In this document: positions 22,312 to 41,458 of the stretch, in pieces
Layout: each line of letters begins with the position of its first letter
Numbering within the stretch: position 1 is the stretch's first letter
IMG/VR virus record: IMGVR_UViG_2563366799_000009
Strand: one strand, 5' to 3'
DNA from: a virus
Taxonomy: Duplodnaviria > Heunggongvirae > Uroviricota > Caudoviricetes
DNA length: 46,457 nucleotides
Notes under the pieces: generated by a model
The model's database searches: none
The model's input: the letters and a program-made list of their open reading frames with translations, nothing else
Told to the model about the DNA's origin: nothing
Program-made: the position numbers and the translations under genes

Positions 22312-24441
22312 TTATTTCGGCAGGAGTTGCGATATTCGCTTACGTTTGACCGGCGCTGGTTCTTCAATAACCGCACCCGGCAGCTCGTAATTGATTTTTT
22401 CTTCCTGTCCAACTGGCGCTGGCAGGAACTTATCCGGATCGGCTTCGAGGTTGGCGGCCCGGACGTTGAGTTTTAACCCCATATGTTTGAGACCGCACAG
22501 CGCGGCATAGCTGTAAACGAGGCAGTCAAGCGCTTCGTTAGCTCGTCCTGGTATTGCTTCCCAGATACTGTACCGCTGCCCGGAAATGACTTTGTAAACC
22601 AGTCGCTCCGCCAGCAGCTGATTGAAGTACCCGAGATCGCGATCGTCAGGAAAATGCATATAACCCGCAGCGGCGGCGCCAGGTTTGGGTGGCTCAAGAT
22701 GCAGGCGACCGCGTATCACGTCTTTCGCTGAGTTAACCCCCAGAATGACAGGGCGGAAACTGGCTTTGCTTTTCGATGATGGTCGTTTGGTCGGCCAGAC
22801 AGGATTGCGTTTGCCTCCCTGTGCAGACTCCCCCTTAATTGCCCAGACACGACGGCCAAGACGCTCTTTGGCGAATTCGTATACCTTCTGCGTATGGTGG
22901 CCGCCGGAGTCCATGCACGTTGCCATGATATTCAGGCCGCGCCCGTCACCACGTCGCCAGATCTGTTTCAGGTATGCATCCAGTCGCTTCCAGGGTTCTT
23001 CCGTCTCAAGGTCACCATAAATAACGTCATGCGCGACCGACCACGATTCTTCATCTCTCCCCCAGCCGGTGATCGTAATTTCGAAGCGATCGTCCTGGGT
23101 ATCAACTCCAGCTGTTAACAATGCCACCCCGTCCGGAACGACGGCCGGAAATATTTCCCGGCGCGCCAGCAGAACATCAACAGGGAGCTGTTTCCCATGA
23201 TTAGGTCGGTGCGGAAGCCCCATCTGGGTATTCCACCACGCCTGTTCCTTATCCGGATCGCCCTTCGCATCGATATATTTTTTCGCAATATCCGACGGCT
23301 TATCTTTTTGCCAGGGGCTGAAAAGCTTGGATGCCTGGTACCCCGCGTGGTGGTTATCGACTGCCTCCTTTCCACAGGAGGGGCAGATTGCGCGATAGAC
23401 CGCATGCCGTTCCGACTCTGACCATTGCCAGACCTTTTCAACGCTGCCCTCGTCTGCCGCCCGCCAGGCAAGGTCATAATCCATCAGCGGTGAGTGCCGC
23501 TCCCCGCAGCACTCAAATGGGCGCGTCTGATGCCATCGAATAGTGTGCAGAGCTCTGAGGCGCTGTCCTTCGGACCAGCCACTACCACAGCATTCGCAAT
23601 AGAGCATCGCCGATTTAGTCAGGTGTTTATCTCCCTCTTTCGGCCACTGAACGTGTTTGAAAAAGTCGGGGAACTGGCGGTGGCCACAGTGCGGGCAAAC
23701 CACAGATGCCCGGCGCTGATCGGAGTCGGCGTAGCTGTCAGCAATGCGGCTCTCATCCTCCACCGTCGGCGAACAGGCGCGTACAGACAGCCAGGTCAGG
23801 CCAAATGTCGCTGTACGCTCTTCGGCCAGCGCAATTGGATCGCCTTCGCGGGTTATCGGGTACTTGTCCACTTCATCCGCCAGCAGGACACGAATCGGAC
23901 GACGCGCAAGGTTATCAGGGCTACCAGCACCCGCCAGCGCCAGAAATCCGCCAGTGAATGCCTTGTAAAGAATGGTTTCTTTCGAGCTTTTCTGTTTCGA
24001 ATCACCGATGATTTTACGCAGTACCGGCGTCACCCTTACCAGCGGGCTAATACGCTCTTTCGAAAACTGTTCAGCGGCTTCTTCTTTCGGCTGCAGCAGC
24101 AGTATCGGACAAGGATCGAGGTGGGCAAAATAGCCAAAAAGGTTTTCCAGCAGTGCTGTCTTCATCAACTGGGTACAGCACATTACAGTGATGATATGAA
24201 CCCCGGACTCCGTCGCGGCAAGCATCGGTCCGCGGGCAATTTCTACCGTCGATGTTTCCCAGTTTCCCGAAGTGCTCCCAGCCTCTTTTGCCAGCTTACG
24301 ATAGTCATCTGCCCACTGCGGCACACTGATACGCGGCGGGGGTGTCCAGCCTTTGCGGACGCTTAATTCAAGACGCTCAATCTTCTGCCGGGTTAAACTC
24401 TGGCTCTCCGAGGACTGAGATGTGTTTGTGGACATGTTCAA
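22312..24441 (-). CDS. Terminase large subunit (lambda gpA-like)
   Basis: 709 aa; start overlaps the 3' end of the small subunit gene. Confidence 0.85.
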   Translation of the reverse strand: MNMSTNTSQSSESQSLTRQKIERLELSVRKGWTPPPRISVPQWADDYRKLAKEAGSTSGNWETSTVEIARGPMLAATESGVHIITVMCCTQLMKTALLENLFGYFAHLDPCPILLLQPKEEAAEQFSKERISPLVRVTPVLRKIIGDSKQKSSKETILYKAFTGGFLALAGAGSPDNLARRPIRVLLADEVDKYPITREGDPIALAEERTATFGLTWLSVRACSPTVEDESRIADSYADSDQRRASVVCPHCGHRQFPDFFKHVQWPKEGDKHLTKSAMLYCECCGSGWSEGQRLRALHTIRWHQTRPFECCGERHSPLMDYDLAWRAADEGSVEKVWQWSESERHAVYRAICPSCGKEAVDNHHAGYQASKLFSPWQKDKPSDIAKKYIDAKGDPDKEQAWWNTQMGLPHRPNHGKQLPVDVLLARREIFPAVVPDGVALLTAGVDTQDDRFEITITGWGRDEESWSVAHDVIYGDLETEEPWKRLDAYLKQIWRRGDGRGLNIMATCMDSGGHHTQKVYEFAKERLGRRVWAIKGESAQGGKRNPVWPTKRPSSKSKASFRPVILGVNSAKDVIRGRLHLEPPKPGAAAAGYMHFPDDRDLGYFNQLLAERLVYKVISGQRYSIWEAIPGRANEALDCLVYSYAALCGLKHMGLKLNVRAANLEADPDKFLPAPVGQEEKINYELPGAVIEEPAPVKRKRISQLLPK

Positions 24442-24946
24442 TCAGCACCTCTGTCATCCTGTCCGCCGGTACATCCAGATCAGCAGCCATTAGCGGCGCC
24501 ACCCTGGACGGCCAGTTAAGCCAGGCATCACGCTGTTGGCGAAAGGCGTTGAATAAAACCTCCTCGGCTGCTGTCAGCTCAATAAGCTGGCCGCTGTCTT
24601 TTTCATACTGCAGCTTTGCCTGCAGGGCCATGTAATTCTCGCGGATACGTCCCGCTTCCTCTCTCGAAAGATCTGCCCCTTCAGTGAGCATTATCTGGCG
24701 GACAGTTTTATTGATTTCATCACCGTCATCATCGTTATCGCTAACGACGGGAGTTTTCTTTTTCTTCGCGTTCGAGGCGCGCGGGTCTTTGCCATCGCGG
24801 TTTTTCTTCAATGCCGCATCGCTGGCCTCTACGTCAATCAGGTCTCCGTCCATCACAATGAAGCGCCCGGCTTTAATCCACCGGCCAATTGTTTTGCGAT
24901 CCACACCTGAATGTTGTGCGTACTGACTCTGGTTCATCGTGGTCAT
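24377..24946 (-). CDS. Terminase small subunit (Nu1-like, N-terminal HTH)
   Basis: 189 aa; N-terminus SQYAQHSGVDRKTIGRWIKAG resembles the Nu1 wHTH. Confidence 0.65.
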   Translation of the reverse strand: MTTMNQSQYAQHSGVDRKTIGRWIKAGRFIVMDGDLIDVEASDAALKKNRDGKDPRASNAKKKKTPVVSDNDDDGDEINKTVRQIMLTEGADLSREEAGRIRENYMALQAKLQYEKDSGQLIELTAAEEVLFNAFRQQRDAWLNWPSRVAPLMAADLDVPADRMTEVLIEHVHKHISVLGEPEFNPAED

Positions 24947-25094
24947 GGGACATCACCTGGGACATTTTCTGGGGTGGGACATTCGCCTGGGACATTTTTG
25001 CCATGTCCCACCAGAATGTCCCACTGGAATAAACTGGAATAGCCAGAGCTGGCGAGGTGTCCGTAATGATCGCCAGAGGTGGGACATGGGACAC
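24947..25094. repeat. cos/pac-like terminase recognition array: GGGACAT x5 direct, ATGTCCC x2 inverted, plus GGGACAC and ACTGGAAT x2
   Basis: GGGACAT at 24947, 24959, 24976, 24989 and 25081; ATGTCCC at 25003 and 25016; begins at the terS start codon. Confidence 0.6.
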
Positions 25095-25184
25095 AAATCT
25101 GAAAGTTGTAGCTAGGAAAACACCGCGGCGCGCAATGCCCGTGCCTTACAAAAGGCTCAGGAAGGACCCAAAACCCCTGGGGGG

Positions 25185-25826
25185 CTATCTGGCCGAGCTG
25201 ATCGCCTCAGCAATCGCCTGGTGCAGCGCTGAGGGTAACAATGCGTTGGCCATGGTGTTTGCCCTGTCCATATAGCCGAGCGTTGGTTTGACTGGAAGCG
25301 CGTCTCCAAACCGAATGAGCAATTTTGGTGCAGGTTGCTTAATCTTGTCTCTGCGCGTGCCGTTCGGAGAACGTTTTGCCCGTTTCTTCCCTTTTTTGGT
25401 TTTCGGCTTTTTTCTCTGCCACACGGCATTCACGCCACCAACGTCACCAATAAATACGTTTGGCTTTGCTTTGAGCTGAGAGAGCTTATTACGCGGCAGG
25501 TTGCCGTATTTATTAAGCTTTATGTCTTTCGGGTTAAGCAAAGCACTACCATTAAGCTTGTGCTCTCCGCCGAACTCGAAGGGTTCAAGGTAACCAGCAG
25601 CAGTATCACGAACAAACACCTTCGCACGAAGGCTGTTTTTCCTGGCACCAACTGACCCTACCGATTTAACTGTAAAAGGTGTTGGATTATCCAGATGCCG
25701 CTCAAATGCTGTTTTTTGGGCCGCTTCTATCTGGCGAACCACTATGGTCATCGCCTGCGCCGTCGCAAACGGTATCTGCTTCTGCAGCTGTCTTAACTGA
25801 CCAGAAAGGTCTTTAAGCGTTGCCAT
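25185..25826 (-). CDS. Hypothetical protein with lysine/arginine-rich cluster
   Basis: 213 aa from ATG at 25826 (AGGTGA RBS); KKPKTKKGKKRAKRSPNGTRRDK cluster; no family recognised. Confidence 0.5.
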   Translation of the reverse strand: MATLKDLSGQLRQLQKQIPFATAQAMTIVVRQIEAAQKTAFERHLDNPTPFTVKSVGSVGARKNSLRAKVFVRDTAAGYLEPFEFGGEHKLNGSALLNPKDIKLNKYGNLPRNKLSQLKAKPNVFIGDVGGVNAVWQRKKPKTKKGKKRAKRSPNGTRRDKIKQPAPKLLIRFGDALPVKPTLGYMDRANTMANALLPSALHQAIAEAISSAR

Positions 25827-25880
25827 ATCATTGATCACCTAATTACAGGAATTAAGATCGGTTTGCTCATAAAGATGACA

Positions 25881-25909: not shown

Positions 25910-26650
25910 CTACTTAGATGTTTGGAAAGATACCGCGACCAGTGTGTAATCATCTATAGGACCGGACCGTTCTATCCTTCTCAGCAAGCTTGCTGCAAAT
26001 TTTGGTGCTTTAGAAATTGTTTCAAGGGAAAGCCGTGGTCTCTGTTCCCAGAAGTGATGAGCTCCATCAGACATGATGTAAACAGTAATGAGCCCATTTT
26101 CATCAACCAGTTCCGACAAGGGCAACTTGACGCTTTGGAAGCGTAAAGCAACGTTTCTGGATATCGCCGAAGTGAGAGTGTTTTTACCTGGAAGATCACG
26201 TAACTCTTTCTTTGTGTATATCCCATCATCAAAAAGTTCTTGGTGTTGAGTGTGATCTTTGGTTATCAACTGAAGCTTTGCGCCTTTTTTTATATAGACA
26301 CGTGTATCACCAACATGTCCAACATACAAAGCTTCATGGTCAATGAAACAGAATGAAAGCGTGGTCGCTGCATTGATCCATTCAGATTTAGCATCTACAA
26401 CCGCGTCAACCTTTTCTTTGAGATCCAGAAATGTTTTTTGGATGTTCGTGATGCTCTCGTTATTGAAAGACCTAAGAGCAGAAGTAGCAGTATCGGCTAT
26501 CTCTTTAGCGCCCTCGTATGAACCGACGCCATCAGCGACAGCAAATACAAACCCATTTCCTGTCGGAGTTGGCAATACATATGAGTCCTGATTGCCGCGG
26601 TCGGCATCTTTAGGGCATGAGAAAAAGCCGCAACTCAGAAGATTAATCAT
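25910..26650 (-). CDS. PP2C/PPM-family Ser/Thr protein phosphatase
   Basis: 246 aa; FAVADGVGS, GDTRVY and SDG motifs; start overlaps the kinase stop as ATGA. Confidence 0.8.
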   Translation of the reverse strand: MINLLSCGFFSCPKDADRGNQDSYVLPTPTGNGFVFAVADGVGSYEGAKEIADTATSALRSFNNESITNIQKTFLDLKEKVDAVVDAKSEWINAATTLSFCFIDHEALYVGHVGDTRVYIKKGAKLQLITKDHTQHQELFDDGIYTKKELRDLPGKNTLTSAISRNVALRFQSVKLPLSELVDENGLITVYIMSDGAHHFWEQRPRLSLETISKAPKFAASLLRRIERSGPIDDYTLVAVSFQTSK

Positions 26651-27414
26651 GCCTGCCTCCCTTCAATTATGGCGTTAAGATCGGCAAGCATCTCACTGAC
26701 TGAATCATATCTCGCAGTCGGTTTGTATGCTGTCGCCTTACCTATTAAAGCATCGATACCATCCACATGGCTCAAATTTAAAATATTCACTATGGCACCC
26801 GCTGCATAGATGTCAGTTTTTGGACTATACAGACCACTATTGACCTCTGGAGCTTTATACCCATCAGTTCCCATGCTGACAGCTATATTGGTTAAAACTG
26901 CTGAGGCCGCGTTAGGATCATCATGCCTCACCAAACCAAAGTCAGACACCTTGTATTGCCCATCATCGAATTTAAGGATGTTTTCTGGTTTAAGGTCCCG
27001 ATGAAGATACCCGCGACTGTGAATATATTCGACGCCGAGCAACATCATTCTAATCGCTGATAGTTTCTCATCATCGCTTAGCACGTTACCTTCAATCTCC
27101 TTCATGAGATCCGTATTAGCCAGAGGCATTACAAACCATGGATGCTCAGCATTGAGATTATGTATCAAGACAGGGACAACATTTGAATGCCGACAGCGAG
27201 ATTGGTAAGTCACCTCTCGTTCAAATCGTCTTCTCCAGTCATCGGGGCTGAAGATTGAACCAACAATATCATGATTAACTGCGAGACTTTTGCGGGCGTA
27301 ATAGCCGCAAAAATGCTCACTAGAATTGTAGAGTTCGATTTTCTCTACACGTCCAAAAGTCCCGCTTCCAAGGTTTGAAATTGGCCTTAAACGATAATTC
27401 CCTCTAGCTTCCAT
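26647..27414 (-). CDS. Hanks-type (eukaryotic-like) Ser/Thr protein kinase, kinase domain only
   Basis: 255 aa; GSGTFGRV, ARK, HRDLKPENIL, DFG and APE motifs all present. Confidence 0.85.
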   Translation of the reverse strand: MEARGNYRLRPISNLGSGTFGRVEKIELYNSSEHFCGYYARKSLAVNHDIVGSIFSPDDWRRRFEREVTYQSRCRHSNVVPVLIHNLNAEHPWFVMPLANTDLMKEIEGNVLSDDEKLSAIRMMLLGVEYIHSRGYLHRDLKPENILKFDDGQYKVSDFGLVRHDDPNAASAVLTNIAVSMGTDGYKAPEVNSGLYSPKTDIYAAGAIVNILNLSHVDGIDALIGKATAYKPTARYDSVSEMLADLNAIIEGRQA

Positions 27415-40627: not shown

Positions 40628-41458
40628 ATGTCCCAGATTTTAGACGGCAACGCCCTGCAGCAGGTGAAAGACCTGGTTCTTTCCGGTTACCACCTGGATG
40701 CAGCAAAAGTTACGGCATGCCCGACTGCCCTGCTTCCTGAAGGGGTTCACGTAGAAAGCCTCGAGCGTTTCGAGTTTGAGCGTTTTCGTTTCCGCGGTGC
40801 CATGACTACAACCAGCATTCCTGACTTTGTGCGTTACGCAGCAGGCTACGCCAACGAAGCTGAACCAGCGCGATGCTTTATCGATGCTGACAACATGACC
40901 GCACGCTCCGTGTTCAATATCGGTACTCTGGCTAACCCTGGCCATGCTGATAACGTCGCATCTATCACCCTCAAAAAGACAGCGCCATTCCGAGCCCTAC
41001 TTCAGGTAAATGGCGATCGACTGGGCCAGAAGGAAATTGCTGAATGGCTGGAGGACTGGGCCGACTTCCTGAGCGCATTTGATGCCGACGGGAATGTGTT
41101 GTCCATCGCGCAGGCAGCTGGTGCCGTTCGTCGCGTCAATATCAAACAAGTCTCGGAAGCAGCTCATGAAGACGAAGATTTTGGCGGCAGAAAGTCCCTG
41201 ATGCAGAGCGTTGAAGCCAGCAGTAAAGACGTGATGCCTGTCGCCTTCGAGTTCAAATGCGTGCCATATGAAGGCCTGGGCGAACGCCGCTTTAGCCTGC
41301 GTAACAGCCTGCTAAAAAGCGGGGAACCGGTGTTTGTACTCCGCATCGTTCAACTGGAAGCCCAGGAAGAAGCTATCGCCAACGAGTTCCGTGACCTGCT
41401 GATCGAGAAGTTCACCGACAAGCCGGTTGAAACCTTTATCGGTAACTTTAAAGCGTAA
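40628..41458 (+). CDS. DUF2303 / YfdQ-family protein
   Basis: 276 aa; size and neighbourhood (followed by a YfdR-like gene). Confidence 0.5.
   Translation: MSQILDGNALQQVKDLVLSGYHLDAAKVTACPTALLPEGVHVESLERFEFERFRFRGAMTTTSIPDFVRYAAGYANEAEPARCFIDADNMTARSVFNIGTLANPGHADNVASITLKKTAPFRALLQVNGDRLGQKEIAEWLEDWADFLSAFDADGNVLSIAQAAGAVRRVNIKQVSEAAHEDEDFGGRKSLMQSVEASSKDVMPVAFEFKCVPYEGLGERRFSLRNSLLKSGEPVFVLRIVQLEAQEEAIANEFRDLLIEKFTDKPVETFIGNFKA

Follow-up and report, generated by a model that had tools for sequence, protein, structure and literature searches.

The window analysed here, the whole 46,457-nt stretch of IMG/VR record IMGVR_UViG_2563366799_000009, is an E. coli prophage, of which a 99.9% identical copy is carried by strain NCTC9040. 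In the NCTC9040 prophage, the neighbouring genes encode lambda-like head functions (gpW, portal, S49 protease, decoration and major capsid proteins), a Mu-like contractile tail, lysis functions, and the antiterminator Q. All genes relevant to the array of GGGACAT repeats studied in this work lie on the minus strand, and the array is situated inside a long co-directional late operon which extends from the lysis genes to those of the terminase. Since it follows the lysis region and directly precedes the terminase genes, its position is that of cos in lambda. The adjacent genes are the following:

22312-24441, minus strand: terL, GpA-type large terminase (ATPase and endonuclease); Pfam GpA_ATPase 2.8e-64, GpA_nuclease 2.2e-78
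24377-24946, minus strand: terS, small terminase, 189 aa; PHROG phrog_57 "terminase small subunit", E 4.6e-36
25185-25838, minus strand: ORF directly upstream of the putative cos; PHROG 1924 "minor tail protein", E 2.5e-61

The terL gene overlaps the 3' end of terS, and its RefSeq start in the identical prophage (L001) corresponds to window position 24435. By its Pfam matches, the large subunit belongs to the GpA family, as expected for a lambda-type terminase. The ORF matching PHROG 1924 stops 15 bp short of the non-coding region and stands apart from the tail genes; the authors describing Serratia phage vB_SspM_BZS1 found its homologue at this conserved place too and questioned a structural role (PMC7556043). 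Farther upstream (25910-27414, minus strand), between the lysis genes and cos, there is an overlapping pair of genes, one for a Ser/Thr protein kinase (Pfam Pkinase, 1e-30) and the other for a PP2C phosphatase (6e-12). The pair has the look of moron or defence-type cargo, and in NCTC9040, whose prophage is otherwise near-identical, its place is taken by a DUF2513 gene. The 73-aa ORF at 24873-25094 and the other small ORFs over the array are not regarded as genes: they translate the repeats only, and they are also ruled out by indels and by the turnover of sites among relatives.

The array was first noticed by its dense heptamers. Reading the sequence directly, we found GGGACAT five times on the plus strand (starting at 24947, 24959, 24976, 24989, and 25081) and twice inverted, on the minus strand (25003-25009 and 25016-25022), with the spacings of 12, 17, and 13 bp, the GGGACAC variant (25088-25094), and the two additional short repeats, ACTGGAATA at 25023-25031 and 25033-25041, all in agreement with the first-pass annotation. 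The array adjoins the start codon of terS (complement CAT at 24944-24946), as had also been stated, and lies upstream of this gene because the genes are on the minus strand. The conserved core comprises 8 bp, TGGGACAT on the plus strand or ATGTCCCA on the gene strand. Its exact form occurs eight times in the window, seven times in the array and once at 40628, and the eighth array site (25087-25094) is the variant TGGGACAC. Seven of the ten GGGACAT copies present in the 46.5-kb window are inside the array. For the eight TGGGACAY sites in 24946-25094, about 0.016 would be expected per 148 bp if GGGACAY were as frequent there as in the remainder of the window (Poisson P(>=8) ~1e-19).

The extent proposed earlier, 24947-25094, holds for the array, but the functional unit reaches further, to a predicted cosN (25127-25138) and a cosQ-like sequence (25163-25169). 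Positions are counted below from the first base of the predicted cohesive end, bp n being window position 25139 minus n. In the direction of the genes, the unit contains:

25163-25169, minus strand: cosQ-like GGGTCCT, bp -25 to -31 (lambda, -24 to -30)
25127-25138, minus strand: cosN, GCATTGCGCGCC, predicted 12-nt 5' cohesive end; bp 1 is 25138
25107-25126, minus strand: flank between cosN and cosB, GCGGTGTTTTCCTAGCTACA, resembling lambda CGCGGGTTTTCGCTA in alignment
25087-25094, plus strand: site 1, TGGGACAC, bp 45-52; distal half of the tandem pair, at the position of lambda R3
25080-25087, plus strand: site 2, TGGGACAT, bp 52-59; second half of the tandem pair
25023-25041, plus strand: two copies of ACTGGAATA, 10 bp apart, directly distal to the inverted sites
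25016-25023, minus strand: site 3, TGGGACAT, bp 116-123; inverted relative to the other sites, compare lambda R2
25003-25010, minus strand: site 4, TGGGACAT, bp 129-136; inverted
24988-24995, plus strand: site 5, TGGGACAT, bp 144-151; direct
24975-24982, plus strand: site 6, TGGGACAT, bp 157-164; direct, near the position of lambda R1
24958-24965, plus strand: site 7, TGGGACAT, bp 174-181; direct, just upstream of a Shine-Dalgarno-like AGGTGA
24946-24953, plus strand: site 8, TGGGACAT, bp 186-193; direct, sharing one base with the terS start codon

The cosN 12-mer exactly matches the annotated cosL (1..12) of phage BZS1, for which PhageTerm analysis of virion reads gave 5' cohesive ends with the overhang GCATTGCGCGCC; as a check, the authors also sequenced across the prophage cos (PMC7556043). 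Identity with this overhang predicts for the window a fixed cut with 12-nt 5' ends. The 12-mer has a conservation of 9/9 across the 51 loci of the class to which the window belongs (class A, see below); by eye, it displays little two-fold symmetry, and the BZS1 nick position is 1 nt off from that given by the alignment with lambda. The cosQ-like GGGTCCT is separated from cosN by 24 bp, which falls within the expected range of about 24-30 bp, and it is also found at the right end of BZS1 virion DNA and in Citrobacter phage phiNP. The right end of BZS1 reads ...GGGTCCTTCCCTGCACTTTTGTAAAGCACGG, and the window has GGGTCCTTCCTGAGCCTTTTGTAAGGCACGG just before the 12-mer. The sequence that follows cosN, CGCGGTGTTTTCCTAGCTA, is similar to lambda CGCGGGTTTTCGCTA, and this flank is kept in loci with GGGACAT as well as in those with a different motif, GGTAACA. 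In many E. coli genomes, homology to the prophage stops at window position 25170 or 25182, just past cosQ, so the cos region travels together with the terminase genes; where it ends at 25170, the gene region 25185-25838 is absent from the shared part. A run of C residues just past cosQ (25175-25180) has six C in the window and seven in NCTC9040 (L001).

The arrangement of the sites was compared with that of lambda, in which R3 lies at bp 50-65 and the order is R3-I1-R2-R1, R2 being opposite to R3 and R1 (PMC9026076). In the window, repeats likewise fill the interval between cosN and terS: a tandem pair starts at bp 45/52, inverted sites at 117/130, and direct sites at 144/157/174/186, and the terS ATG is at bp 193, while the lambda cores are placed at bp 53 (R3), 114 (R2, inverted), and 155 (R1), with the Nu1 ATG at bp 191. 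Both systems thus share the order cosQ-cosN-cosB, GGGTCCT 24-25 bp before a 12-nt 5' cohesive end, a similar sequence to the right of cosN, a first TerS site about 45-55 bp from the end, and an inverted site followed by direct ones. They also share a GpA-type TerL and a TerS with a C-terminal part that is conserved along with its TerL partner, and the N-terminal winged helix-turn-helix (HTH) of lambda TerS may have a counterpart in the one predicted here. The differences concern the sites themselves, which are eight 8-bp cores in four pairs here and three R sequences of about 16 bp in lambda; the additional pair overlapping the ribosome-binding region; the motif, ATGTCCCA in place of CGTTTCC(G/T)TTCT; the sequence of the cohesive end; and the TerS, which unlike Nu1 does not match the Pfam Nu1 model.

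A further difference is that the IHF consensus was not found here between the tandem and inverted sites. In the scan of bp 59-125, the best matches to WATCAANNNNTTR were no better than those in shuffled sequence, the lambda control having one mismatch, and the A+T content of this spacer is lower than in lambda. Because no outstanding IHF consensus is present, a cosB bent by IHF as in lambda is not established for this array. The pair of ACTGGAATA copies may be a bend or a host-factor site, although the scan pointed to no particular host factor; within class A, its conservation is no more than moderate. A TATTCC word occupies a similar place in E. coli loci of the GGTAACA type. The spacer also contains a CCAGAG(C/G)TGG repeat with 30-bp spacing (25049-25082), which is not conserved, and two further candidates in it, the inverted repeat CTGGCGA/TCGCCAG and a degenerate inverted GGACAC at about bp 77-83, were dismissed for lack of conservation.

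The TerS protein consists of a predicted N-terminal winged HTH, a K-rich linker, and a conserved C-terminal domain; in the alignment of 25 homologues, the N-terminal domain is variable and the C-terminal half near-invariant. The predicted recognition helix occupies about residues 17-25 (DRKTIGRWI). In the AlphaFold model, residues 1-50 form a beta-H-H-wing-H arrangement with pLDDT of about 75, for which Foldseek returned Xis (probability 0.98), RacA, BldC, and a chain of 6hn7, the entry for the RppC/lambda TerS complex, every E-value being above 0.1. The DNA-binding domain of gpNu1 (1j9i) superposes on this model with TM 0.51 (target-normalised) and rmsd 2.9, likewise at E >0.1. Similarity to Nu1 in sequence is marginal: no Pfam match was obtained at E<0.01, BLASTP against lambda Nu1 gave E 0.043 over 31 residues, and hhalign a probability of 7.8%, values too weak for a claim of homology or for membership of the Nu1 sequence family. 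This is why we suggest that TerS works like Nu1 and do not file it in the Nu1 family. A sequence search of PDB returned spurious matches to RecA repeats only, and tblastn against 50,697 phage records found relatives below 34% identity only. The family (24377-24946 and homologues P0002-P0120) is widespread in Enterobacterales, and nearly everywhere it is annotated as "hypothetical protein" with no Pfam domain recorded, which represents an annotation gap.

To relate the repeats to the protein, two public collections were scanned with the pattern GGGTCCT-N22-26-GCATTGCGCRCC, by whose construction cosQ is present in all real loci. The scan returned 240 loci, and 136 of them, having a TerS-type N-terminal domain downstream (HMM), were kept. 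With the motif of each locus defined as the commonest 7-mer between cosN and the start codon, the following pairings were obtained:

Helix V[DN]RKT[IV]xRW: motif GGGACA, 51 of 51 non-redundant loci (class A)
Helix [VT]S[RK]KT[VI]TxW: motif GGTAAC(A), 37 non-redundant loci, plus a few with no repeat
Helix MSRQALYxW or VTRQTIYDW: motif GTGTCAA, 3 non-redundant loci
Helix MSRR[AS]FYNW: motif GTGTGAA, 2 non-redundant loci

Wherever a repeat is present in these 136 loci, all sharing cosQ-cosN, the motif tracks the recognition helix of TerS without exception. The general plan is common to the classes: the first copy is at bp 46-48 in nearly all loci of every specificity class, inverted copies lie at about bp 117-150, direct copies extend up to the ATG, and the last site is within a few bases of it. 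The array of the window itself recurs in 47 E. coli genomes and in many other genera, and class A extends over several genera of Enterobacterales, among them Kluyvera, Morganella, Hafnia, Photorhabdus, Xenorhabdus, and Arsenophonus. On a 0-9 scale, the motif columns of class A have a mean conservation of 8.4 and the spacers of 4.6, and the number and positions of the sites vary between genera.

Two sizes of cosB occur on the same cosN, as seen from L011 1-77, L010 2395-2503, and about 20 further loci. The short form, present in BZS1, phiNP, and about 20 loci, has three GGTAACA copies at bp 48, 55, and 67 and the ATG at bp 74-75. In the long form there are 7-8 copies, an inverted pair among them, and the ATG follows at bp 198-211. 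These forms recall the simple cosB of N15 and the complex cosB of lambda and Monarch. In a few loci with the helix VSKPAVTKW, any repeat is lacking and the ATG is at bp 55.

The nearest isolated phages, BZS1 and phiNP, have TerL proteins about 48% identical to that of the window. A comparison with homologous phages, proposed in the first-pass annotation, revealed in both of them the same layout of cosQ, cosN, repeats, and terS; their cosN GCATTGCGCGCC and cosQ are identical to those of the window, and their repeats also include a tandem pair, at bp 48/55. They differ from the window in the motif (GGTAACA), in its number (three copies only, ATG at bp 75), and in the TerS, which has another helix and another C-terminal domain. 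The published description of BZS1 covers the 12-bp cos and not the repeats (PMC7556043), and packaging is not mentioned in the phiNP paper.

An exchange within E. coli is seen in the prophages L006-L008, where GGTAACA goes together with its matching helix. In a windowed comparison of L006 and the window, terL and the 3' third of terS are 82-95% identical; identity is 25-60% between about 24600 and 25092, and beyond 25092, across cosN, cosQ, and the gene upstream, it amounts to 85-100%. By this profile, what is exchanged is the array together with the first 115 or so residues of TerS, and no other gene. GGTAACA is found on two terminase backbones, with TerS C-termini and TerL of the BZS1 type and of the window type. 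A comparable relationship was described by Feiss and colleagues for lambda and 21, which have cosQ and cosN in common and differ in cosB and the recognition helix (PMC4669245). Here, as between lambda and 21 (and N15/Monarch), cosB and the TerS helix are swapped jointly as a cassette, and complex and simple cosB both occur (the 7-8-site and 3-site forms). The present case differs in that at least four motif/helix classes, putative specificity classes, exist on one cosN, in many genera. Since the array and the TerS N-terminus are adjacent, linkage could explain a part of their co-variation; the motif-specific conservation, the turnover of sites, and the occurrence of one cassette on different backbones argue for a functional coupling of the motif with TerS.

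These data suggest that the GGGACAT array is the cosB, the set of docking sites for TerS, of a lambda-type cos site which occupies 24946-25169 on the minus strand; we would put the probability of this reading at about 0.85. The first-pass annotation had proposed a terminase recognition site resembling the R sites of lambda cosB, and this proposal is now supported by comparative evidence. The support includes the placement of the array between terS and a 12-mer equal to the determined cohesive end of BZS1, a lambda-type cosQ at the lambda distance, site positions and orientations that mirror R3, R2, and R1, the co-variation of the motif with the TerS helix over 136 loci, and the joint swapping of the array and the TerS N-domain against constant cosN, cosQ, TerS C-terminus, and TerL. 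The sequence anatomy, the identity of cosN with a relative's determined end, and the motif-helix co-variation are observed directly. The kind of element is already known; in the literature that we could search, we came upon neither its motif, nor the arrangement in eight sites, nor the set of specificity classes. The motif had been noted as unfamiliar from any described phage, in accordance with which megablast of the array region gave no match, near or exact, in the 50,697 phage records, and no paper pairing the motif with "terminase" was found.

By analogy with lambda, from which we infer TerS binding, the nick positions in the prophage, and the direction and termination of packaging, the site may operate as follows. 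On the minus strand, the order would be cosQ (GGGTCCT), 24 bp, cosN (GCATTGCGCGCC), cosB, and terS. The N-terminal winged HTH of TerS would bind the eight 8-bp ATGTCCCA sites, and TerS placed on the tandem pair, some 45-58 bp away from the cut, and on the inverted and direct sites would anchor the GpA-type TerL on cosN, where it would introduce nicks staggered by 12 bp. Packaging would then run from cosN through cosB to terS, toward lower window coordinates, and would stop at the next cos, where cosQ would be required.

Several other explanations of the array were considered. Clusters of short direct and inverted repeats beside a start codon are a usual feature of operators, the last site here reaches into the region from the Shine-Dalgarno sequence to the ATG, and the HTH modelled for TerS is of the MerR/Xis type, a fold common to regulators. 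The repeats could therefore be imagined as operators for a transcription factor of terS and the late genes, perhaps TerS itself as an autoregulator, with no role in packaging. However, neither a sigma-70-like promoter nor a terminator was found within 24700-25500, the array is enclosed in a long co-directional late operon, and the distance of the first sites from cosN is constant throughout the classes, a constraint for which an operator would have no use; we therefore find this explanation very unlikely, although binding of TerS may have a regulatory effect in addition to packaging. We hold it to be very unlikely that the array is a pac-type headful region, or that some other protein binds it as iterons or as a centromere, the cos-like 12-mer being coincidental. 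Multi-copy short repeats do look like pac regions and plasmid iterons, and TerS is outside the Pfam Nu1 family, but TerL is of the GpA type, the family of cos phages, and does not indicate headful packaging; the 43-bp cosQ-cosN pattern is common to a phage with determined 12-nt cohesive ends, no replication or partition gene is nearby, and no coding sequence other than the TerS N-terminus co-varies with the motif.

In the late mRNA, the inverted copies could form a hairpin controlling terS translation or transcript stability: two arms of 22 nt (24974-24995 and 25003-25024) have 86% complementarity, and the RNA fold has z = -2.67. Such pairing is, however, an automatic consequence of inverted DNA sites. 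It has no counterpart in the relatives with the short cosB (BZS1, phiNP, about 20 loci), whose three copies are direct and form no hairpin; conservation concerns the 8-bp word, whichever its orientation, and not the pairing, and the Rfam search gave no family, its sole match being a miRNA far below threshold. The probability of an RNA element thus appears to be very low indeed. A chance cluster or a low-complexity artefact, which could appeal to the window-wide count of GGGACAT (10 found, 5.5 expected, not significant), is already refuted by the seven exact copies and one variant in 148 bp, with the P value given above, and by the recurrence of the array across E. coli and many other genera.

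Returning to the array as a cosB, we observed that the loci with GTGTCAA or GTGTGAA encode a protein in which a TerS-like N-terminal HTH is joined to an unrelated C-terminal domain, with no TerL nearby. In E. coli 2022CK-00450, such a gene and its cos lie on a satellite-like island of about 16 kb (L255 14700-30700) between yicC and dinD, which carries an integrase, a toprim primase, and Icd-like and PerC-family genes and has no capsid, TerL, or tail genes. Strain 2022CK-00450 also carries a prophage of the GGGACAT type, and three E. coli strains (2022CK-00450, 1368KP, and EC09) have both the island and the prophage. Similar loci are L009 1700-2600, L141 4800-5700, L060, L190, and L193; some of these loci are not clearly satellites, as the gene upstream in the Raoultella locus L141 is tape-measure-like. 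The islands have the cosQ-cosN of the window and repeats of their own, AAGTGTGAA or AAGTGTCAA.

This composition is similar to that of E. coli PICIs (EcCICFT073), which possess helper-like cosQ and cosN, a different cosB, and the winged-HTH protein Rpp (PMC6739421). The islands found here likewise pair the cosQ-cosN of the phage family with their own repeats and a TerS-N-like protein, and differ in that this protein resembles, in sequence, none of the solved chains of Rpp or TerS; the likeness concerns the islands and not the array of the window. By analogy with Rpp, the islands may redirect packaging. A broader and rather doubtful possibility is that the array is one allele of a portable cassette of cosB and TerS winged HTH, with at least four codes on an invariant cosQ-cosN, some of which reside on satellites of about 16 kb. 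If this were true, the islands would redirect the terminase of the phage family to their own DNA by means of a protein with no sequence relationship to Rpp.

These results leave the present understanding of cos packaging as it is. For the family, a group of proteins listed in RefSeq as "hypothetical protein" would gain a function, that of the small terminase of prophages, widespread in Enterobacterales, which combine a lambda-like head with a Mu-like tail, and a packaging site and a cohesive end are predicted for the same prophages. The four pairings of a helix with a motif of 7-8 bp on a constant cosN provide a data set on how the winged HTH of terminases reads DNA, and could help in designing cos plasmids or transducing particles whose packaging specificities are orthogonal, as well as in spotting satellites that borrow the terminase.
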